From Moniliella sp. 'wahieum' (Eukaryota), in NCBI GenBank assembly GCA_003971905.1, contig RSEE01000022.1, positions 186,001 to 250,000 of the forward strand: a stretch of 64,000 bases of DNA. Direction: 5' to 3'. The translations under genes and the position numbers were made by a program. Shown here one piece after another: positions 1 to 55,541 of the stretch. The notes under the pieces were generated by a model that was not told the origin of the DNA, searched no databases, and saw only the letters and a list, made by a program, of their open reading frames with translations. Numbering within the stretch: the stretch's first letter is position 1; each line of letters opens with the position of its first letter.

Positions 1-97
1 GTGTGTGCTTCCCAAAAGTTCCCCCGCACCGTCTAGCAGTGGCTTAGTGACCATGGTAGACAGAGACTGTTCGGGATGCACGTTAGTTGTGCAGTGA

Positions 98-121
98 TCA
101 CATGTCACATGTCGCATGCCA
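98..121. repeat. TNA-palindrome 7-bp lattice (TCA CATG TCA CATG TCG CATG CCA)
   Basis: Read directly; three CATG palindromes at 7-bp spacing. Confidence 0.8.
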
Positions 122-1036
122 CGTGACGTGTATCATTGAAAGGACTCTTGTTGTCACTTTTCCCCATAACCGTTGCATCAATCGCGCGAACCACTGCGGT
201 CCCTACTACTACTAGCCCAAATGTATAGTGCTTTCATCGACTTGTGATGCATTCGTTAGCTCCTGCGACAACATGAATCAGCGGCGTAAACAGAAAACCG
301 TGGAGGACATACATCCGATTTGAAGATGGCCCGCGGGAAGATCGAGTTACAGAAGGACCTGACGCTGCCTGACTGATCGACGCGGCCATAATGCATAACA
401 GCGCCGAGCGCGAACTGCAGCAAATGCCCGACTTTAACCATAAAGTCTCGCACAGCAATCTTCCGGCCACTAGTGACTCCATTTGTTGTGACGAATGCTT
501 TTGGGATACGCTCCTCGGTGAGTTCGGTGAGTACACCGAGAAACAAAAAGGCCACACGAGGATGTGAGAACCAGAGTGCGATTGACACACGCGAGCAACT
601 AACTTTTTAGCATCAGGGCCCAGACCTTCAGGGCCAACCTAAGATGGGAGGCAGTTAGAGTCACTAAACGAGACGGCCTCCAGGGAACAACAGTCGAGAG
701 CCTAGCCCCAATTTTGTCACCATTTCTCTCTTTGCTGATACTGACTACTCTTTGTCACCGTCGCATTTCGCCCTCTACACCTGCACCAAACCTCTGATCT
801 TTCTCATTTCGAGTGTCTCGCTGCCCTTGTCGATTTCGGGATGGCCTTTGGCCGTGAACTGAATGCCATTCCTAGTGAACAATTTACTGAGTAATAACAA
901 GAATGTGGGGCGAAGGAGTAAGAGTATATATACAAGGAGAATCCACCCGTGGAAAGCGCCAAAATCGATCCCTACAATAGTCAATACCTTGGGTGTGATC
1001 AACGTGGCGGGGGCAAACTCTTATCGGACCCGACGA

Positions 1037-1053
1037 TGATCGATGAGATCTGA
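1037..1053. repeat. Mixed TNA-palindrome lattice TGA TCGA TGA GATC TGA
   Basis: Read directly; two different palindromes separated by an identical TGA. Single units also at 1264-1273 (TGA GATC TGA) and 1390-1399 (TGA GGCC TGA). Confidence 0.85.
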
Positions 1054-3195
1054 GAGGCCTCGTCTCTGTGCCTTGAGTTTGACGTAACAACTTCTCTCCG
1101 GTAATTCATTAGTTCGACCATTGTCCCGAAAAGGACGGATAGGAGGCACCCGTCGTCGCTAGCAGCTCATGCCTACAAACCAGCGGCACATGTACACCTA
1201 TATGTCAGCCCAGAACAGAAGCATCGTTAAACACTTTTTGCATTCGCAGAGGGGGACAGCAAGTGAGATCTGAGAAAACACCGTATTCTCCCCTCTCCTC
1301 CACCTCCTGTGGTACGGAGAGGAAAATCCCGTCGTAAGACTAGATGACCACCATGTCTGTATTCAACCTGATCAAGACCGGTTCATGCCTGAGGCCTGAG
1401 GACGGAGTGCCAGTAGGGCTGGCTATACCATAGGTTGTACTTTGCGCCGGTACCTCGAAACGTTTTATTGACACGACGGTTGACGCGCACAGCAATGTTA
1501 TAGACCCTCCACTCTCGTGACGTGGAGATGATAGCGTGGCTAGACAGACAGTACGCGACGCTGGCACTAGGCCACTGCTATGCCTGCGCGAGTGTGCGCC
1601 TTTTCCTATTCTCCTGTGGCATGTGAGCTCTTTCGCTCTTCTCTCCACTACCGACACCGGCTCGACTCTGTACTTGGTTCGCCTTCTCCGTGTTCGGACG
1701 GTTCGGCTCCCTAGCCCGTTCAGTCATCAGTAGGGGGAATATGAGTGCCGGCCAGTTGGTCACGGTGCTACAAACTCGAGCGGCACCCACCATTAAGAGA
1801 CTTTCCTCTCCCCTTCGTCAAGAAGACAAGCGGGCACACCACCAATGATCAACAATATACTTGAGCAGTGGACTAAAAGTCAGTCTTACACCCAAGAGTC
1901 TCGTAATACAGGTCTACCACGATTGGAAGCGAATGGCGAGAGCCAGAGGGGCGGAATCCTGACCTGCTGGCGACTCAACGATCCGCCTCCTCTTTGGTTG
2001 ATTGACACGAACTAGCAGTGGCCCGCCAAAGCCGCGAAATCATCATCGTGCACCGCCTCTCTCCCTCCATCTGTGTGCCCTTTATGAGGATGGGGGAGCG
2101 TCAGGATTTGACGTAGGCAAAGGAAAGGTGGCATGATCTACGTGGTCGGCCTGTACGTTCTTTTGTGTGAGGCATATATTCACGGTGGAGAATGGCCAAA
2201 ACATATATCGCCTACTATGCAATTTATAACCCCACACTCCTGGTACTGTTATGAGGGACTTTGGGGAGAGGGTTATCTGTTCCGTTTGAATTCCTTCTCT
2301 GTGGATAAGGGCCTGCCACACATGCCAGCTTGGCTACTTGGACTTCTCTTTACAGAGACTTCTAACGTACATTATCTCTCTGTTGTTTTTGAGAGCCTTT
2401 TTCTTTCGTCATAGGCACATATAGCTTTATAAGATGGTGGTGTAAAACCGAGAAGGAAAGTGCAGGAGTTGTGGCTAGGAATACCTACCGCATACGTGTG
2501 GCTCCCTTGGATGGACAAGGCATGATATCAAAATCGATGCTGCAGTGAAGCTGATGTGATGGCGACCAACCTCCTTCATCATCCAATCGAGGATTCCGCA
2601 TTGTTAAGAAACGCATTAAGTTGTTAGTACTGCGCGGCCCAGACGAGCGGCGCCGATGGTGGCAGATCCGTCTAATGTTCCTATGCCCAAGTCGTTGTGA
2701 TTGATCCGGGGTCCGTAAGGTGGGGAATGGGCACGTTTCTGCCTGTGATCGACAATGGAGCCATTCACCACATGGAGTTTGTCGGAAAGTGCGTGAAAGA
2801 GAAGAAGTGCGTTGGCCTGATCGTTTCCTACAGAGGCGACTCCAACGGCGAGGGGATAGACCCTCTTTCCCCCCTCCCAGGTCTCATTTTCAGAGGAGTA
2901 TTGGGCCACCATGCTGTACAATATGGGTGAGACGTGGTATATGTCCTTGGTGGGACCACAAAATGTTTCCGAGAGGCCATGCGTTCTGAACCACAAAGCA
3001 TAATCAGACTACTTGCGAGCGTTTGGTGGGAAGAAAAGGCCAGGCCGTTGGCCGCGGATTCAGATATCTCAAGCCCGAATATGTATCAACGAAGTGGGTT
3101 GGCGAGAGTGACACCAGGGGGACAAGACAACCCACAGTGTGTAGATACTAATTAAAGGATAGGATCGGTCTTGTAGGAAAGCACATGGTAATGAA

Positions 3196-3219
3196 TGAGG
3201 CCTTAGGCCTTAGGCCTTG
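3196..3219. repeat. TNA-palindrome lattice TGA GGCC TTA GGCC TTA GGCC TTG
   Basis: Read directly; related GGCC units near 4287-4316, at 4575-4588 and at 4841-4871. Confidence 0.85.
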
Positions 3220-5516
3220 GGCTCGAGGAGACATGTCAAAGAGGGGCTCATGTGGTACGCAGTATTCAGGCTGAGTCCTGAGCCTCAGGAGAGTGAGATT
3301 ATTGTTTGCGGTCGGTTGTTACATGTGTTACACTCGAACATACCGGAAGGAAAAACAAAGACACTTTTGCAGCGCTGTGTCCCACGGGTACTACTATAAC
3401 GCCCACGTAACGCGCCCATAAGTTTTCGGAACCCACGCAACGCCTCCGATTCATCATAGTTGTTTCACAGGATCTCCCGACGCGATCATTGCAAGTTATA
3501 TATTCAGGGAGCCATTCATTGCATTCACCACGCTCGTTCATTCTCTGCTTCTTTTTATAGATATTGGAAAGAAAACTGGAAAGAAAGGTCGCCTAATAGA
3601 TGACATAGATTATCGCGGTAATTACGTAGTTACTGTAAGAATCGGGCGATACGAGTGAGACCAAATACCAAGGGAAGCCAAAGATGCAGTGGTAGGAGAA
3701 GGGAGAACAGGATCGGCGGGGAGAGCAGTGAGACAAAGATTCCCCTGATTAGCTAAGAGGACCGTGCAGTTACTCACTTATCTGTCCCCAAAGCCAGTAT
3801 AGGGACGAGTTGGCAGTAACAACTAGCAAAGATCCACACTGCGGTGTTATCATTGCCACACCAGCCCTAATTGCCCTCTTTACTGAATACCGCCAATATC
3901 GCCCCAACCCCGGTTTCGCTTCGGGTCGGATCCGCCGTCTGCGTACTTGAATAGTACTGTTTTTTGTCGTGAGCCGCTCGTTTCCTCTGAGGGTACCCTC
4001 AGCAATATAAGAATGTGGCTCTATATAGGAGCGCGTTCGTCACTGTCATGAACCCTCTGTGGTGATGACATGCACAGGCCGGTTCGCCGACAAAAGATCC
4101 AGCCAGCTATATGTGTCGAAGGAAAAGAGAGTTGATATATGGTCACGGGATAAAGAAAAAACCCAAGAGGAGGTGAACCAGAACAGGCGATTAAACCATT
4201 ATTGTGACTCACTTACAGGGGGACGTAGCCGCCGAGTGAGGGACGTTTCGAGTGTTACCTCCTTGTGATGCTTATGGTTTTGTATAGGCCTCAGGCCTGC
4301 CTCAGGCCGGCCTCAGGTCTGATTTCAAGGCGATATGCCACATGCCAACTATCATTATCAAGGCGATGGGATCATAACGAACCGTGGTTTTTTTTACATG
4401 TTCATGCCAGTGTTTAAAACGTGTCATGAGGGACAGGAATAGGCCACGGCCATGTGGACTTGCAGTGTTGCACAACGCTGCTGCATATAATCCTCTCAGC
4501 AACACACGCAATGCAGGTCTCGTGGGTAGGCATGCACCACCGGGAAATGATCCATACTATGTTGCCCCTCATCCTGAGGCCTGAGGCCCGATACCTGATG
4601 CCTGATCCTGATGATTGATTCCTTGATATGAGGGCCTGAAGGGTTAATTATTCCTCCAATCGACGAGGCCGAAGTCTGATAGTCCAGGCTGGGGTCGATG
4701 AGGTTGATGGGCGATGAAGCCTCTGGATCTGAGGGATCAGATGCGTGAGAAGGGTTGTCGTAACTTGTGATATGATACGTTCATTGGATGACTGGACCGT
4801 AGACACCTGTAGATGAGACTTTTTGTGGGCGGTTTGGCCCTCAGGCCTCAGGGGCCTCCTGAGGCCTCAGGTGCTGCACGCAATGCAGCGTCAGCAGCGG
4901 GTTTGAACACCCAGGTTTCACCCGTTTTTGTTTGAGTGAAAAATGCGGTGTGGCAAGCAGGTGTGGCGAGGGATGCACCTACCTGATGCACTGATGCAGG
5001 CACCGCAAGTATTATTAGGGGCTCCGCTTGTGGGGCTACATGAGACGTTCAGTTTTAGCGGTTACCGGCTACTAGAACCGGGTATACCATTCGCTGGCGG
5101 TATTACGTTTGTGTGAACTGTGGAGACTCTCTCCGCCGATAGTCGCTTCTCTGTGGTCATTGAATACTGACCCCACACACTTGACATTTGTTTGTTCGTG
5201 AGATGATGTCGAGGATGTTGACGAGAATTTGTGACCAGTACGGATACCGTCGCTTCCGCCTTCGGCTTCTGCTTTCCATCCGAAGTTGGCAGTGTATATA
5301 ACGTAACGTGCAACCCATATGTGGCGCTGGCCACACTATGTATGGTTCACGGCGAGACTGCGCGGTGTGGCTCTCGAGGCCTATGAAATTCGAGAGGATG
5401 TTGTCCTGTGGACTCAGCCTGAGCGAAGAGTCGCCCGCGCATAGCGCTTAGCCTGGGGGCGCACAAATGATTCGGCACAGATTATGTTCGGATCGGTGCG
5501 CGTTATGCGCGTTGCG

Positions 5517-6272
5517 TTACGCGTTACGCGTTGCTAGCGCCTAGCGTTTTATACTCGAGTTGGCCGTTGGACGTGTTTCGCCTGTCTCCGTCACACACAC
5601 CTTCAGAATTGCATCCCTTCTCCGCAGGCACATATTTGCCACATTCACCGACTGCCGCCATGATGCATGATGCATGGTGTGGCGTCTGTATCGTGGGTCG
5701 CTTTGCTCCGCAGGAGCTCAGGCGTGACACATCCAGGCCCTCCGCTGGTGGTCGCGCACAAGAGCACCGCGCCAAGCTTTGAGCTTGAAGCTTGAACGTT
5801 TAGAATGTGCTGAACGTACCGAACTTTTAACGTTTTTTTATGGTTAAACGTTAAACGTTAAACGTCAACGCGTCACGCGTCAACGTTGAACGTTGATTGA
5901 GTACATCGAACATTGATGATCGGATGAGCTCCTAGCGATGATATACTGATTTGCCACAGAAATGTTTCGGTCGTGGTAAGGGCCCAAGACCCAAGGGTTG
6001 GACGTTGGTGCTCCGCGGAGAAGTGTCTAGCCGTTAACCAAACTCCTGCCCATAAGACCACTACTCCTTTCGAAGCCGAGCGTCTGCCGAGTGCATCCGC
6101 ACTGTTGCGTCCTCAGGACTTGTTGTAAAGCTTAGGTCTGCAGAGCGCTGGCCTGATGCCTGACGGGCGACTATGGCAGCTGCTTTGGCGCGCTATGTGG
6201 AGTCAGATCTCAGAAGTCAGTTCTCAGACGTTCAACAAGCTTCAAGCTTCAAGCTTCAAGCTTCAAGCTCCA
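5517..6272. repeat. Dense cluster of TNA-palindrome lattices (CGCG, TGCA, AGCT, ACGT, GATC)
   Basis: 5517-5533 TTA CGCG TTA CGCG TTG; 5661-5674 TGA TGCA TGA TGCA; 5772-5802 AGCT x3 then ACGT; 5845-5896 seven palindromes in register; 6203-6226 TCA lattice; 6235-6272 AGCT x5 at 7-bp spacing with TCA spacers. Confidence 0.9.
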
Positions 6273-6687
6273 ATAAGCTTTAGGGAAGCACTGGGAAGCC
6301 TCCAGCGCAAGTTGCTCATCTTTGTCAGATCATCGATTATCACTTTGGGCGTTAGCTTGCTAGATGGCCGATGAGCGTTTGAGCCCAAATCGGGCGATCA
6401 GGCCGGGCGATAGTATTGTGCGCACCTTGGTTTCGATCAAACCGGCATAAGCTGAAAGCAGCACATCCATGTGGTCTGCTCTGGTCTACCGACCTGGACG
6501 GCACGCCTAGACCTTAGGGAGTGCGGGGGAAAGGCACAGTGTGCCAATGCCCCCTCCAGACTTTCCCTCTGTTGAGGGTGCCCTGCGCACGAACGGGCGC
6601 GGGTGGCATACTATGCACGCTCGCGAGATGCAGGCATGCGGCGCCGCCGGGCGCGGCGGAGAGGCTGCCGGCCGCTTTGCAAGGGCG

Positions 6688-7665
6688 TTACATGTTACAT
6701 GGGCCTGGTGCTGCCCTCGGTATTAGCGTGAGTACTGAGTGGCGTTGCGAGGGCCAGGAGGGTTCCATGTTGCGTGGTTGCATGTTGCATGTTACAAGGG
6801 TACGGATATACTGATGGTACCGATGGTGGTAACCAGTTACCTCATGCTGGCGTATCGCAACTGTCCGTGGATCATACATCGCCCAACGCACCCAGGACGC
6901 TGAGCGAACGCTCCGGTTCGCGGCTTAGCGGCTCAGCGCGACTGGGACTGCTGGAGCGGAGCTGGCCACGATGCGGTCTGCCAGCCGGGCTTCGTTGGCC
7001 TCGCTTGCGGCTGCCGCCCTGCCGAACGAGCGCTTCTTCGGCGCTCAGACGCCCTCAGGCCTCACGCGTCAAGCTTCATCTTGGATTCTAGGCCGGGGGT
7101 GGCAAGGCACGGCAGCGCAGTGCAGGGTGCAGCTGCCCCATCATGCATCACACACCCCATGTCACACATAGCCCCAGACCACCCTGCCCCGGGCACACGT
7201 GCATGCAGGCGCGCCTTGGCCGCTGCCACGACCGGCTACTGCCCCCGTGGGGTGCGGGCTTAAGCGTGCAACCCTACCTCCCTGCCCCCGTGCCGACAGA
7301 AAGCGTCCCCCAACGGCGTGGCAGCCAGCCGTCCCCGACACAGGGCCAGTGGCGGACGGGGGGGAGCGGCCTAACGCGAGTGCTGTATCATGCGCCACGG
7401 GGGAAGCGTCCGCAACCACGCCGTCGGGGCACAGGGCCGTGTGGCTATGTCCGCTTCCGTGCCTCCGCCCCCTCGGATCTGAGTCTCAGACCACAGGCTG
7501 AGGCCAACTGAGCGCTGAGGCGCTCACGCCTCGGCCTGAGGCCACCTCTCCCGCCTCCCGCCTCACCCGTCACCGCGGCCGGACCGGCGCAGGCCACCAC
7601 ACAAAAACGGGACGGGTTCATATATACCCCTCAGGCCTCACGCGTTCGCTTCCTCTCAGATCTCA
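6688..7665. promoter_or_regulatory. Upstream region of the zinc-finger TF with a TATA-like element (~7619-7626) and multiple TNA-palindrome units
   Basis: Units at 6688, 6729, 7055-7078 (GGCC/CGCG/AGCT), 7141, 7509, 7631 and 7656; TATATA about 110 bp upstream of ATG 7735, followed by a pyrimidine-rich leader. Confidence 0.55.
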
Positions 7666-7734
7666 CGCCTTTTATTCCCTCTCCGGCGCAGTCTTGCTTC
7701 TCCCACCACTTTCACTCTTCCCCCTCCCCCCGCC

Positions 7735-14237: not shown

Positions 14238-14441
14238 GTGGGAGCACTGGTGGAGGAGGAGGGTTATGGTACTGGTACTGGTGCTGGTACGGAGGATTGA
14301 CGACGACGCACATATAGGATGGACGCGATGCATACAATCATTTGAGTTGGATGGGAAGAACCCCAGTGGGGGTTAGTAAGATCGAAGAGTGTGGTGTGAT
14401 GCTGATGGATAGCCGCGCCCTGGGCAGCAGCCACGCGCAGG

Positions 14442-14788
14442 TCACATGTCACATGTCACATGTGGCTGTCACATGCCCTGACAGACATCCCATCACGTGC
14501 CACATCACATGTCGCATGGGGGCATGTCACCTGTCACCCGGTATCAACATACCAGCGCATCCCACACGCTCACCCGCCCGGCCTCTCGGCCTCGGCTGCT
14601 CTCCTCGCCCGCATCCAAGGATAGCACAAACGCCAGGCACCAGCCCCGCACCGCACCTGTGTGTGCGCAGCCGCCGCGGGGGCTGCCTGGCGCATGTCAC
14701 ACACGTCACAGCGCCATGCCATGCATGCCACCGCATGCATCCCACATCCCACATCATGCATCCCACATCACACATCCCACATCCCACG
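14442..14788. repeat. (TCA CATG)n lattice and degenerate 7-mer (TCC CACA / TCA TGCA) array upstream of adenylate cyclase
   Basis: 14442-14462 TCA CATG x3; 14733-14788 eight 7-bp units in register. Confidence 0.8.
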
Positions 14789-15254
14789 CGGGCCCCCAGG
14801 CGCAGTGTGAGCTTCGCACGGGCGGTGGCGGGGTGCTGCTGCTGCATGCTGCATGCTGGGGGCTGGCCTGGGGCGGACCCGCACCGCCTGCACGCACGCT
14901 GCACCCCGCAGCCGCTGGGCGATGCATGGGGCGGGTGCTCCCGTGCGCGTGTCACGTGGCGTGCGTGGGCGCTGCTACACCCCCCGCAGCCACGCGCGCC
15001 GGCTGGGCTGCGGCGCTGCTCCCGCCTGCTGGGTGCCCAGCCTGGGCGCCCGCCCCGCTGCTGCGCCGCCACCTGCGATGCGTCAGCGTCACCGCCACCC
15101 CATCGGAGCACGCCGTCACGCGTCACAGCAGGCCGCCATGCAGGAGCAGCAGCCTGCCGGGCACCGCGCGGCACCCCCCCACCCCACCCCACCCCACCTT
15201 GCCCCACCCACACCTCCTGCCTGCTGCGCCTCCATCCTGCTCCGCCGCGCCCCC

Positions 15255-18200
15255 ATGGTCTTGCGCCGCCGCGCTCTCTCCAGCTCCGCCACCCTCTCCA
15301 GCACCGCCCCCCCCCCCCCACGCCTCCGCCGCCTCCCTCGCCCCCTCCAGCGCCTCCGCCGGCACCCCCGCCGCCCCCGCCGCCGCCCCCGCCTCCGCCT
15401 CCGACCACACCCGTCGCCCGCGCCGCCAAGCGCGCGGCGGCACCATCCTCGCCATCCTCAAGCATGCCACCCACGCCGCCCACCCGTCCCCCGCTCCCTC
15501 CGACCACCCGTCCCCCGCCCCTCTGCTGGCCCGCCGCAGACCCAGGGCGCAGGCCGCGGCCGCGATCGCCGCCTCCGCACCCTGCCTCTGGCTGGTTCCG
15601 CCGCGGCGTATGCCTCGGCCTCGGCCTCTGCCTCTGCCTCTGCCTCTGCTCCCGTCCGTCGCTCGCCCACCCCCATCACGCGTACTCCTCCCCCGCCTCC
15701 ACCCCGCCGGTAGCCCCAAAGCCCATGCCAGCGCACCCCGCCCCGTCCCCCTGCCCTTCCCCTTGCCCTACCCGCTGCCTCTGCTCTGCCTCCACCTCCA
15801 CCTCTACCCCCCGCGTGGCTGGCCAGGAGAGCACGCCCAGTGTGCTGGGACTCGGACTGGGCGTGGAGGAGCAGGCACCCAGCAGTGCGAGGACGAGGAG
15901 CGGCAGCCGCCGCTTCCCTACACGCCTCCGCCCCGCCCCGGGCTCCCGGCGACCAGCTTTGACTTTGAACGGCCCCGGCTGGCTCGATTCTCGGCCCTCG
16001 GGCGAGGCCGCCTACTCGCATGGATCCGCCTCGCCCCCGCTTGCCCCACCGTGGCTCGCCCGCCCGCCCGCCAATGCCGCCTTGGACACCGCCGCCCACC
16101 CGGACGCCGACCCGCTCGACCCCGAGACGGCTTTCCATTCGCCCCCGTCGCCCGTCGGCTCTGGCCACGTGCCGCTGCCACCGTCCGGCCCTGGTCCTGG
16201 CCCTGGTCCTGGTCATCATCATGGCATCTTCCCCTGCTGCGCGCCATCCTGGCAGTGGTGCCCGGGCCCCGTCCCAGCCTCGAGTCGGCGGGTACCCCCC
16301 CTTTTGCCCCATCCCCATCCTCACTCTTCTCTGCCGCCTGCCACCACTTCCACCCACCGCTCTCCCAGCCCCCCCGGCTCTCGCTCAGCTTCGACGCCAC
16401 GATCGAGCTCGGCCTCCCGGTCGGCTTCTGCCTCGCGCTCCCGCTCCCACATACGTACGCGTAGCCATTCCCGCGGCCGATCCGCCTCCCCCGCTACGTT
16501 GGCCGAACATCCCTCGCTCGCAATGGACCGCCCGCGCCGCCCCAACCGGTCGCATTTGCCCTTTCATCCCAAGAAGCGTGCTGCCCACGACACCCAGTCC
16601 CAACGTTCTCTTGATGCCGGGCTGACCAATGTGCTGGCCACTTCGTCCTCTGATACCTCCCTGCGCCCTGCTGCTGATGACGACGACGCTGGCTCCACCA
16701 CCCATCCCCCAATCACGATCACGGGTTCCGGATTCACTTGGGTGGATTGTTCAAAAAACATCATCACCGTCATCCTGCCCCTTCTTCTCACCACCATTCC
16801 CATCACCATCACAACTCCTCCCCTGGCCCTGTCCAAGCAGCACCGTCTCATTCTGTCTCAGCAAGCACAGCAGCGCATCTTCCGTCCCTCCCCTCTGTAC
16901 TGGATCCAGCACGCACCCCATCCCCAGCTCACCCTTCGGCCCACGATCCCCTCCGGTCCTCCACATCGCTCCCTACCCCTCCGGGAACGAATCAACCTGT
17001 CCCGGCCTCGCCTGGGCTCGAAGTGGGGGGGCCCTGGCCATTCTTTGCCCCGGCCCACCCCTACACCCTGCCGCCTGGGTCCAGTAGTCCAGCAGCCCCC
17101 TCGGCTCCCATCGCACATGAGAGCAGCTTTATTCCCGCTCGCCCGGCTCGCCCCGGCTCCTGGCAGCCGCGCCGCCAGCAACGATCGACCTCCGCTTTGA
17201 TCCCAACGACGTGACTGCCTTTGTGGATCCCCACCGGCTGTCTCGACCCTCGTCCCCATCTCGGTCTCGCTCCACCTCGCGTCCACCCCGGTCTGGATCT
17301 ACGTCGCGTGCGCCGTCGCGCGCATCCCCGCCCCGACTGCCCTCCCAGCCCGTTTCCCGCGCCGCCTCGCCCATCATTCGGGTCCAGCTCCTGTGGTGCA
17401 AGAGGAAGATAAGATGGGCAAACCAGGGCCGTCGGTCCCTGCCTCATCGCGAATAGGTAGGCCATTGAAGGGGCTGCGCTCTCACTCAGACACACGTGGT
17501 ATGCGCGGCTCCCCGTTCCTTCCTACTTTCCCTCCATTTGGCATTCCTCCCAGCAAGAAGTCCATCCCCTGCCCCCACTTCCACCCCCACGCCCACGCCC
17601 ACGCCCCCGCCCCCTGCGCCGCCTCCCCACCCATCGTGCCGCCGAGTCGGTACTGCAACGCCCACCTATTCAGCCCCTTGCCACCCCACACGGCCCCCCG
17701 CAGTCCAATCCTTTCTGGCCTCCAGGCCGATTCCGCGTCGGACGCGCTCCTTCCCGAGCGCGGCAGGGTTCGATCTCTGGCTCTGGCACCGGTTCGGTGT
17801 CGGGTTCGGGCTCGGTGTTGGCCGCTGCGTCGTGGTCCGCCCCGGACAGTTGGGCGGTCAATCCGCCTTCGCCCCCCTCGTTGAGCTCGCGACGAGAGGA
17901 GGAAGAAGAGGAAACGTGGATGCGCTACTGGACAGCAACACAGTGCTCCGGCTCAGTTCATTCCACCGGTAGTCTCGCCCGTGGCTGGGAGCGAAGAGAC
18001 GCCGGTCACTGCGCCCCCGCGCGGCCCGAACAATTGGATGGGCACCGGATTCCTGGGCTGTTCAAGCGGAAGGCGGAGGGTCGGAACCGGGCGAGGAAAG
18101 GTCTTCTTCCTCCCTCGACACGGTTTCTACCCCGCAAGAGAAGGAGGCCGAATGCGCGCCAACGGAATGGCTCCCAGCCCGCAGCTCCTCCCCCGACTCG

Positions 18201-43656: not shown

Positions 43657-43764
43657 CGCGTAACGTTAAACGTTAAACGCCCTAAATATTAAATCTCGCT
43701 AAAGTGCTTGTCCCGCGAATCGTCCTTGAAGCTTGAAGCTTGAAGCTTGAAGCTTGAAGTTTCA
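43657..43764. repeat. TNA-palindrome lattices in the URA3 promoter
   Basis: ACGT TAA ACGT TAA (43663-43676); TAA ATAT TAA (43683-43692); (TGA AGCT)x4 TGA AGTT TCA (43727-43764). Confidence 0.9.
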
Positions 43765-44283: not shown

Positions 44284-45545
44284 GTTGGGGCTGCCCTACA
44301 CGCCTACTCGAAGATCTCTGCCGCTGATGCTCTTGGGGATCCAGTGTGGACCCCCGTTTGGTATGACACTAGATGACTCTATAGTAGACCTATTTGGGTC
44401 ACACTATCGGCCTGGCTCACCGGCCCCGTCCTCCCATTGGCCCTCTGCTGAAGGAGGAGTGGAATGGAGGATGTGGTTCTGAGGAAGATACAGGAGGCTA
44501 TGAGAAGTAGGGCCTTATATAGCCGAGGGTACCGCGGAGCTGAGAGCGTCCGGGCTGATAAGAGGAGTGATGCCTGTCATATATCACGCAGAATGATGTG
44601 ATTGGGGCATCGCCCCGACACCATCCGCGGGAGCTGGACACAGACAACAGTTACAGAGAATGAGAGGGAAGGGCGTTGCCTGGCAGGTTAACGGTGGATT
44701 GACAAGGATGTTGTACAAGGACGAAAGATGAGAGGAAGAGGCAAATGTGGACGAAGACGAAATAGGTAAAAGCCCGCTAGGGGGAAAGGAGAATGGGTCA
44801 AAGGTTATACAGACAGTATCTATGTTGTATAGGGGATAGACAACACCATGAAGAAAGGAGAAATTAATCGAGATTGGTGGCTCCCACAGAAAAGGAGCAC
44901 AGGCCACCAAGTATTAGGGAAATGGTCCCACATTCGGTCAGGCGGGAAATGAGAAAGGCGCCAGGAGAGAATCTCACTGCGAGAGAACGAGGAAGTGTGC
45001 AGATCACAGGAAACTGAAGTCCACAGATCCACGCGAGACGGGCAACCCGGGTTTGGAAAGAAAGTGGAAGAGACGACTTTTGACGGGGAATCGGACCCAC
45101 CATCTTCGGTATTGTAGCCACGGATTTGCTTCTGGCCAACACTGCACTATATTGAGCCTGGATGGAGTGTCAATAGGGGAAGATTAACCATATATATTGA
45201 TTGACCTCCAACGATCAGGAGGCTCAACTTTTGAAGCTCACTTGCATCCACGACCAAAGACCAAACATAAAACGATGGGAACATGCTCCGTTTAGACAAA
45301 CGGAGTGCATGGGTTTGCTTTCAACATTCAGACAAGCCAACCTAGTCTTGACGTAGTACGTAGGCCCATAATGCATAATCGATAATCCAGGCAAGGCAGG
45401 GAATGGGAGGGGACGGGCTCGGCCACCTCGGCCGCCTCGGCCATTGCCTGGGACATGTGCACGTGTCATGTGACAGAAGCCACTGGCTACGCCTGTGTGG
45501 CATGCGACGCGTGACGTATAGACGAGAAGCCGCGCGGCCGGAAGA

Positions 45546-55452: not shown

Positions 55453-55453
55453 G

Positions 55454-55541
55454 TTCCCCGACCGGGAGTCGAACCCGGGTCTTGACGGTTCCCCACAATG
55501 GAAATGAGAGCGTCACATCATAGCCGTTGGACCATCGAGGA
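55454..55541 (-). tRNA. tRNA-Glu (anticodon CTC) with a 16-nt canonical intron
   Basis: Minus strand TCCTCGA-TGGTCCAACGGCTATGATG-TGACG-CT-CTC-A-[TTTCCATTGTGGGGAA]-C-CGTCA-AGAC-CCGGG-TTCGACT-CCCGG-TCGGGGA-A; acceptor, anticodon and T stems pair; intron after position 37. Confidence 0.95.

Follow-up and report, generated by a model that had tools for sequence, protein, structure and literature searches.

The array at 7055-7078 and its setting

We analysed a stretch of 64,000 nt from contig RSEE01000022.1 (the window); all results come from this one 64-kb window and all positions are numbered within it. The window is eukaryotic and holds split genes. Just upstream of an open reading frame (ORF) with a Pfam C2H2 zinc-finger match, at 7.8-8.8 kb, lies a short patterned string, TCA GGCC TCA CGCG TCA AGCT TCA (7055-7078). 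It comprises three units on four TCA triplets, which start at 7055, 7062, 7069 and 7076 and thus keep an exact spacing of 7 bp. The spacers GGCC, CGCG and AGCT are each a perfect 4-bp palindrome. Direct reading confirmed this string as the first-pass annotation of the DNA had described it, together with the remark that one palindrome can be turned into another only by paired changes: all three spacers share a central GC (xGCx'), and their difference is confined to the complementary outer pair.

A shorter version of the array had been said to recur near 7631, after a TATA-like element, and it does so within an exact 18-nt repeat, CCCTCAGGCCTCACGCGT, found at 7052-7069 and 7628-7645 (repeat family D6). 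The second copy, hereafter copy B, lies directly 3' of ATATATA (7620-7626), which is part of the TATA-like sequence TCATATATAC (7618-7627, plus strand). This element was read from the sequence and is given as context, its function being putative.

A window-wide class of TNA-palindrome arrays

As controls we used 200 dinucleotide-preserving shuffles of the window. The arrangement TNA-pal4-TNA (N, any base, the same on both sides; pal4, a 4-bp palindrome) was found 68 times, compared with 2.2 ± 1.5 in the shuffles (maximum 7), and arrays of the form TNA(pal4 TNA)n numbered 62 against a shuffle mean of 7.3; these counts reject a chance origin. Eleven arrays had at least two units (0.02 in shuffles) and four had at least three (0 in all 200 shuffles), the array at 7055-7078 being one of only these four. 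Palindromes filled 68 of the 108 TNA-N4-TNA occurrences, against about 2 of 35 in shuffles, and the 40 non-palindromic occurrences compared with about 33. Together with the perfection of all three spacers at 7055-7078, this bore out the earlier view that decay of a homogeneous 7-mer repeat did not give rise to the array.

The palindrome excess was limited to spacers of 4 nt, with none for spacers of 2, 6 or 8. When XYZ-pal4-XYZ was counted over all 64 trinucleotides (161 cases), TCA gave 31, TGA 24, TAA 7 and TTA 6, which make up the 68 above, and the other 60 averaged about 1.5 each; ANT, CNG and GNC were not enriched. The base N was the same across the palindrome in 68 cases and different in 10, and 14 of the 16 possible 4-bp palindromes were in use. 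One-mismatch relatives numbered 88 against 49 ± 6.5 in shuffles, an excess (about 39) that is exceeded by that of the perfect copies (68 vs 2). Most of these 88 differed at the TNA positions, and 23 broke the palindrome. Junctions of the type pal-TNA-pal were homogeneous in 32 cases and heterogeneous in 20.

The arrays are confined to non-coding DNA, with 1 of the 62 array starts falling inside the 17.3 kb of Pfam-supported ORFs and 61 outside. Tandem Repeats Finder returned 136 rows, 34 of them with period 7, and the non-coding ones among these consisted mostly of units of T[ACGT]A plus a 4-bp palindrome. Folding of homogeneous arrays was much stronger than that of shuffles, TNA forming the triloop of the hairpin, as in the (TGA AGCT)4 array at 43725-43759 (exactly 5.0 copies, z = -4.79) and the (TCA AGCT)n array at 6236-6269, which has strong hairpin potential (z = -3.83).

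At 4860, 5880, 10060, 35719, 42675, 45564 and 55130 the two N bases are complementary, so that TNA-pal4-TN'A makes up a perfect 10-bp palindrome. These are 7 of the 10 different-N cases, each one mismatch away from the same-N class; chance would be expected to give roughly as few of them as of same-N cases, and they may represent a less frequent, inverted product of the process behind that class. On a larger scale, 5774-5796 (TGA AGCT-type) and 6236-6273 (TCA AGCT-type) form inverted arms, 91% complementary, around a segment of 444 bp. This arrangement could be likened to a miniature inverted-repeat transposable element; a chance pairing is also possible, AGCT being the commonest palindrome.

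The palindrome is usually a copy of the flank

The main new result is that the palindrome is usually derived from the flank and not from an element. Scars most often take the form of a 12-mer, TNAxy y'x' TNAxy, in which a 5-nt direct repeat flanks the reverse complement of its last two bases. A script that deleted 7 nt wherever this 12-mer or its reverse complement occurred (flank-copy reduction) removed 59 of the 78 units. Among the 51 single-unit arrays, the 7-bp period carried on into the two outer bases of both flanks in 15 and of a single flank in 25, and did so in neither flank of the remaining 11; chance would give 1/16 per side. The 88 edges of the 44 same-N single-unit arrays were extended by 0 nt in 27 cases, 1 nt in 11, 2 nt in 32, 3 nt in 7, 4 nt in 7, 5 nt in 1 and 6 nt in 3; edges are either unextended or extended by exactly 2 nt. 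Edge pairs of single-unit arrays were of type (0,2) or (2,0) in 15 cases and of type (1,1) in one.

The direct repeat could also be counted by itself. TNAxy recurred at distance 7 in 102 cases, compared with 5.1 expected, and in 84 of these the spacer was the reverse complement of xy; repeats at distances 5, 6, 8 and 9 numbered 11, 14, 12 and 19. Spacers of this palindromic, P-nucleotide-like (P-like) kind with lengths of 1 and 3 nt were found 6 and 4 times, against 84 for 2 nt.

The same rule resolved two heterogeneous arrays completely. The array at 1037 (GA TGA TCGA TGA GATC TGA GA, 1034-1055) reduced to GA TGA GA and the array at 45369 (CA TAA TGCA TAA TCGA TAA TC, 45367-45387) to CA TAA TC; in both, the left and right palindromes each have their source in the flank on their own side. 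In a composite run of TAA-ACGT, TCA-CGCG and TGA-ACGT units (5843-5896), the array at 5845 reduced fully and that at 5873 kept one irreducible unit.

Several other routes to the scar were rejected. Plain tandem duplication of a 7-mer fails because the modal scar, at 12 nt, falls short of two 7-nt units. As the main route, inverted (fold-back) duplication of TNAxy was discarded because the two sides carry an identical N in 68 cases. Symmetric target duplications of 5, 7 or 8 bp with hairpin inversion of the bases next to them were worked through by hand, and none yields TNAxy y'x' TNAxy from an arbitrary left flank.

The sites themselves are biased. In the 31 one-sided arrays, the base at -1 of the uncopied edge was G in 20 (G baseline 27%) and C in 6, and the copied dinucleotides were enriched for GA (7) and GG (6). 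The exact 12-mer TGAGATCTGAGA occurs seven times in unrelated contexts (0 expected), at 1044, 1264, 7654(-), 11159(-), 11727, 46082 and 57070(-), and G precedes it in 5 of the 6 copies that are single-unit scars. To judge by these recurrences, G TGA GA would be a strongly preferred site. Another sequence, CCTNAGGCCTNAGG, was found five times, with 0 expected.

Three smaller observations concern the scars. The preferred sites, G TGA GA/GG, resemble the consensus of a 5' splice site, but N is C or T in 12 of the 31 arrays and the sites are intergenic. TNAxy repeats at distance 9 are enriched too (19 vs 4.5 in shuffles); they have no P-like spacer, and several of their spacers are 4-bp palindromes, for example TGCA and TCGA. 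At 6201-6228, a whole scar with its flanks forms a 14-bp tandem duplication, AGTCAGATCTCAGA followed by AGTCAGTTCTCAGA with one mismatch, which means that scars can be re-duplicated at a higher order.

Order of events at the locus

When the reduction was applied to the array at 7055-7078, the GGCC unit alone was removed. Unit 1 and its templating flank, CC TCA GG CC TCA (7053-7064), have the form uvTNA v'u' uvTNA, with the left flank CC as the source, and deletion of 7 nt from this 12-mer takes the array from three units to two. It is the sole array in the window that keeps two irreducible units after reduction. The first-pass annotation had stated that the third palindrome is not explained by flank copying, and this held.

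Copy B provides a second version of the locus. Beyond the exact match over CCCTCAGGCCTCACGCGT (7628-7645), the two loci agree in 11 of 17 further aligned columns, a similarity reached by 0.43% of random 17-mer pairs, and the two loci are probably paralogous over about 35 nt (copy B, 7628-7661, by repeat search and alignment). Copy B carries a one-unit scar, CC TCA GGCC TCA, at 7629-7640. The segment CC TCA GGCC TCA CGCG T is present in both loci, and TCA AGCT TCA of the 7055-7078 array (locus A) aligns with T-T CGCT TCC in copy B. Since both copies carry the GGCC unit, this unit would predate the duplication or have arisen twice at the same CC TCA C site. CGCG (7065-7068, part of ACGCGT) is probably ordinary ancestral flank and not the product of an event, because it is common to both paralogous copies and has no TNA after it in copy B, which continues with TTC and not TCA. 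If CGCG is ancestral, the alignment suggests that the three palindromes are partly a coincidence.

The third unit, TCA AGCT TCA (7069-7078), is locus-specific and irreducible, and neither of the flanks it now has (left, CG; right, TC) can account for it. It is a later change specific to locus A, made from a template that is no longer adjacent or by a minority pathway. The template may have been lost through a flank change or a small deletion. The rule would be satisfied, for example, if a left-flank copy had been made at a CGCT-TCA site and 6 nt had then been deleted, a path no more parsimonious than three substitutions and an indel.

We infer that the array combines at least two successive events and one coincidence, and not three transposon families. 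The suggestion that successive events struck one TNA target is supported, as the array looks like several events. The further expectation that this array discriminates between models failed: with an origin in ancestral sequence probable for one of the three palindromes, the array alone cannot decide. Active maintenance of symmetry, also proposed, found no direct support: the segment 7050-7083 showed no hairpin advantage (-2.8 kcal/mol, z = -0.79), 47 of 200 shuffles folding as well. A neighbouring one-sided scar, TC TCA GATC TCA (7654-7665), is one of the seven exact TGAGATCTGAGA copies (counting reverse complements).

Break and hairpin-type repair as a candidate mechanism

The class is marked by TNA specificity, direct duplication of TNA plus 2 nt, a loop-less inverted copy of the flank, a gain of 7 bp, polarity and confinement to non-coding DNA. 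We hold, with confidence evenly balanced for and against, that the 24-bp string at 7055-7078 is a composite mutational scar of this pervasive class, which grows in 7-bp increments on a repeated TNA in non-coding DNA. By the empirical rule, a site ...G TNA xy... gains seven bases and becomes TNAxy y'x' TNAxy; TNA and the two bases after it are duplicated in the manner of a target site, and the inverted flank dinucleotide between the copies completes a perfect 4-bp palindrome. The mirror-image event copies the left flank, repeated events at one site lengthen homogeneous arrays, and a left copy and a right copy at one site give two different palindromes.

If TNA suffered a staggered break and the repair went through a covalently closed, hairpin-like end, the product would be the loop-less, P-nucleotide-like palindrome. 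We infer a step of the hairpin type because a loop-less perfect palindrome fits hairpin opening or symmetric element ends, and not fold-back synthesis by a polymerase. The break would most likely be a by-product of a TNA-targeting cut-and-paste transposase (PHIS/PIF-Harbinger-like, TWA or TNA) or of a related nuclease. As an explanation of the class, this break-and-hairpin reading seems to us about as probable as its negation.

The closest precedents are enzymes that make hairpins. Those of hAT, MULE, Transib and RAG hairpin the flanking DNA, according to PMC5499845. Excision of Ac/Ds in Candida albicans and Saccharomyces cerevisiae leaves palindromic P-nucleotide footprints, two of which predominated in C. 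albicans (35 and 18 of 128 clones; PMC5873905). The scars described here resemble hAT footprints and the P nucleotides of V(D)J coding joints, in which a perfect loop-less palindrome is an inverted copy of DNA adjacent to the break; a further likeness to hAT excision is that a small number of footprint types can come to predominate through a bias of the host (PMC5873905). There are differences as well. hAT elements make an 8-bp duplication, and their footprints are centred on the element-adjacent base, include deletions and vary in length, whereas here the repeat is the 5-nt TNAxy, the P-like part always has 2 nt and is restricted to one side, deletions are absent and the gain is uniformly 7 bp. 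A direct repeat of 5 nt does not follow the family-typical pattern of target-site duplications (TSDs; hAT 8 bp, MULE 8-10 bp, Transib 5 bp), the one 5-bp family, Transib, being reported absent from fungi. The flank-hairpin families further show P nucleotides of variable length on either flank, with deletions, whereas the mirror outcome was seen here once.

A number of results weigh against the composite-scar and break-and-hairpin readings. The scar is polar, with T-side (mirror) P nucleotides found once among the 18 non-standard distance-7 cases; the 5-nt direct repeat, with TNA at one end, is no symmetric target, and symmetric excision of a transposon does not predict such polarity. The scar, always +7, is also far more uniform than usual hairpin footprints. 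Nineteen of the 78 units are irreducible, including two of the three in the 7055-7078 array; chance accounts for about 7 arrays. The paralogy behind the ancestral status of CGCG spans no more than 35 nt (p about 0.004). Excision of PIF/Harbinger elements such as mPing is mostly precise, and the G bias at -1 differs from the C|TNA|G target of NuwaII. Neither an enzyme nor an element was found in the window. Pfam searches found host genes only, and no transposase domain, in 126 of the 164 listed stop-to-stop ORFs of at least 130 aa and in 128 ORFs of 70-129 aa from seven array-rich non-coding stretches; a DDE transposase and an accompanying Myb-like ORF, looked for in the same 126 and 128 ORFs, were not found. 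A search for TNA-flanked terminal inverted repeats (TIRs; at least 12 nt, at most 2 mismatches, 40-8000 bp apart) returned 21 pairs, all of them array against array or 12-nt arms with 2 mismatches, and so no convincing TIR element in the window. Transib, the hairpin family with a 5-bp TSD, is reported absent from fungi in PMC5751038; this counts against the reading, and Transib was set aside as a source on that account.

A bolder version of the break-and-hairpin reading, which we think rather unlikely, is a previously undescribed endogenous mutational engine, in which a domesticated or mobile transposase-like nuclease with TNA-specific, polar cleavage and repair through a covalent hairpin adds exactly 7 bp per repair, and the scar is the footprint of no known transposon family. 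Each event would then make a new palindromic y'x'TNAxy site and seed further events, giving rise to palindromic heptamer arrays that would spread through promoters and intergenic DNA and bring stop codons into each of the three frames. As an observation on the arrays themselves, three successive TGA or TAA units place a stop in every frame of one strand, and TCA or TTA units do likewise on the other strand; in arrays of at least three units this would follow simply from 7 not being a multiple of 3.

Alternative explanations

The best of the alternatives, though improbable in our estimation, is that cut-and-paste elements with a 3-bp TNA TSD inserted and excised in succession, each leaving a footprint of TSD, 2+2 element-end nucleotides and TSD, with different palindromes stemming from differing terminal dinucleotides. 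The footprints left by Tc1/mariner excision are of this kind, consisting of TA, element-end nucleotides and TA, and they served as the model when this history was first proposed for the array. The model yields +7 and a perfect palindrome automatically and accounts for the direct repeat of TNA; GGCC is moreover the classical PIF/Tourist terminal pair, and the irreducible minority of 19 of the 78 units, including CGCG and AGCT, could be covered by it. The likeness to Tc1/mariner footprints lies in a duplicated target with a palindromic filler of a few nucleotides, and in the possible stacking of repeated events at a single target. Here, however, the target has three nucleotides, TNA, and not TA, with the same N in 68 of 78 cases and no TA-based periodicity, and the filler is flank-templated in 59 of 78 units, although in the 7055-7078 array one of three units is flank-derived.

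Within the PHIS superfamily, PIF/Harbinger elements have TWA TSDs and NuwaII elements C|TNA|G, and TNA-targeting PHIS elements of the NuwaII group exist in fungi, according to PMC4482050. The 3-bp TNA duplication with any central base is found here as well, and CCTNAGG doublets occur five times in the window; for comparison with C|TNA|G, the 31 one-sided scars have G at -1 in 20 cases and C in 6. A footprint such as the present one is not described in the accessible part of PMC4482050, and the window offers no transposase.

What counts against the element-end model is its prediction that element ends should be independent of the flank. In 40 of the 51 single-unit arrays half of the palindrome equals the adjacent flank, with a discrete edge that peaks at exactly 2 nt; the two palindromes of the arrays at 1037 and 45369 each agree with the flank beside them; and flank-copy reduction takes out 59 of 78 units. 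The model would also need 14 of the 16 palindromes to be in use within 64 kb of a lineage, the Ustilaginomycotina, that is described as compact and repeat-poor in PMC5751038. No donor element with termini matching the palindromes, and no TNA-flanked TIR element or matching transposase, was found in the 64-kb window. Elements with different terminal dinucleotides, as the first-pass annotation had envisaged them, are thus not borne out.

Still less probable, in our view, is a heptanucleotide microsatellite, whose quasi-palindromic units would form hairpins and expand by slippage, with symmetry kept through template switching or hairpin mismatch correction and no nuclease involved. The period-7, head-to-tail arrays in non-coding DNA do resemble microsatellites and other hairpin-forming tandem repeats, and homogeneous growth fits the strong folding of homogeneous arrays (z = -4.79 and -3.83), the excess of homogeneous over heterogeneous junctions (32 vs 20) and the small number of palindrome-breaking one-mismatch relics (23 of 88). 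Slippage does not predict 12-nt scars, shorter than two units, with the phase fixed at the TNA edge, nor 15 edge pairs of type (0,2) or (2,0) against one of type (1,1). A loop-less perfect palindrome would not be primable by fold-back synthesis, given what a polymerase requires, and hairpin thermodynamics leave the strict TNA specificity unexplained, ANT, CNG and GNC not being enriched. Microsatellites have at least two identical full units and an arbitrary end phase, whereas the units here are bound to TNA plus a palindrome, form minimal scars of less than two units and heterogeneous arrays, and depend on the flank; the array at 7055-7078 has three different units. The self-complementarity that promotes hairpin slippage is a property of the homogeneous arrays and was not found at 7050-7083, where the heterogeneous array folds no better than shuffles.

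A functional cis-regulatory module, that is, putatively, a promoter cluster of ACGCGT-, AGGCCT- and AAGCTT-type sites kept by selection, is very improbable: the array is intergenic and upstream of the zinc-finger ORF, the 18-mer recurs beside the TATA-like element and ACGCGT resembles the fungal MluI cell-cycle box, but the same architecture occurs 62 times with 14 palindromes and a flank-dependent sequence, which fits a mutational process and not one regulator.

Significance

In the literature searched, which did not include subscription-only papers, we found no description of TNA-palindrome heptamer arrays. If the flank-copy rule holds genome-wide, it would provide a clean and countable signature of one break-and-repair reaction in a lineage thought to be nearly free of mobile DNA, and would reveal both the cut site of the enzyme (G|TNA) and its end processing (a 2-nt, hairpin-type palindrome). 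Such events, and not slippage, would then seed a class of promoter tandem repeats, offering natural markers for ordering events between strains and tying the origin of microsatellites to transposase-like nucleases in a way that can be tested. The message of the 7055-7078 array itself is more modest: it is a real multi-event scar.

Genomic context

Pfam matches in the window, in addition to the zinc-finger ORF, included an adenylate cyclase (LRR + PP2C + cyclase) at 19.4-23.2 kb, a P-type ATPase on the minus strand at 31.1-34.3 kb, an OMP decarboxylase, a PDR-type ABC transporter, a kinase and a forkhead protein. For the ATPase exon, the top named relatives were from Ustilaginomycotina (Tilletiaria anomala, 64%; Kalmanozyma brasiliensis, 61%; Violaceomyces; Meira), which points to a smut-related, Ustilaginomycotina-like basidiomycete as the host.

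Rfam gave no match at gathering score anywhere in the window, the arrays included. ARAGORN predicted an 89-nt tRNA-Glu (CTC) at 55453-55541 on the minus strand, far from the array and without an Rfam match; it may contain an intron or be a false call. Between 12000 and 18000 the window is very GC-rich (up to 72%). Long ORFs overlap there on the two strands, low-complexity tandem repeats of a proline- or alanine-like kind are numerous, and a 960-aa ORF at 14318-17197 has no Pfam match. The first part of the window, 1-7700, holds no Pfam-supported ORF; its GC content is lower (49-52% up to 6 kb), and its scar density is the highest in the window (23 of the 62 arrays).

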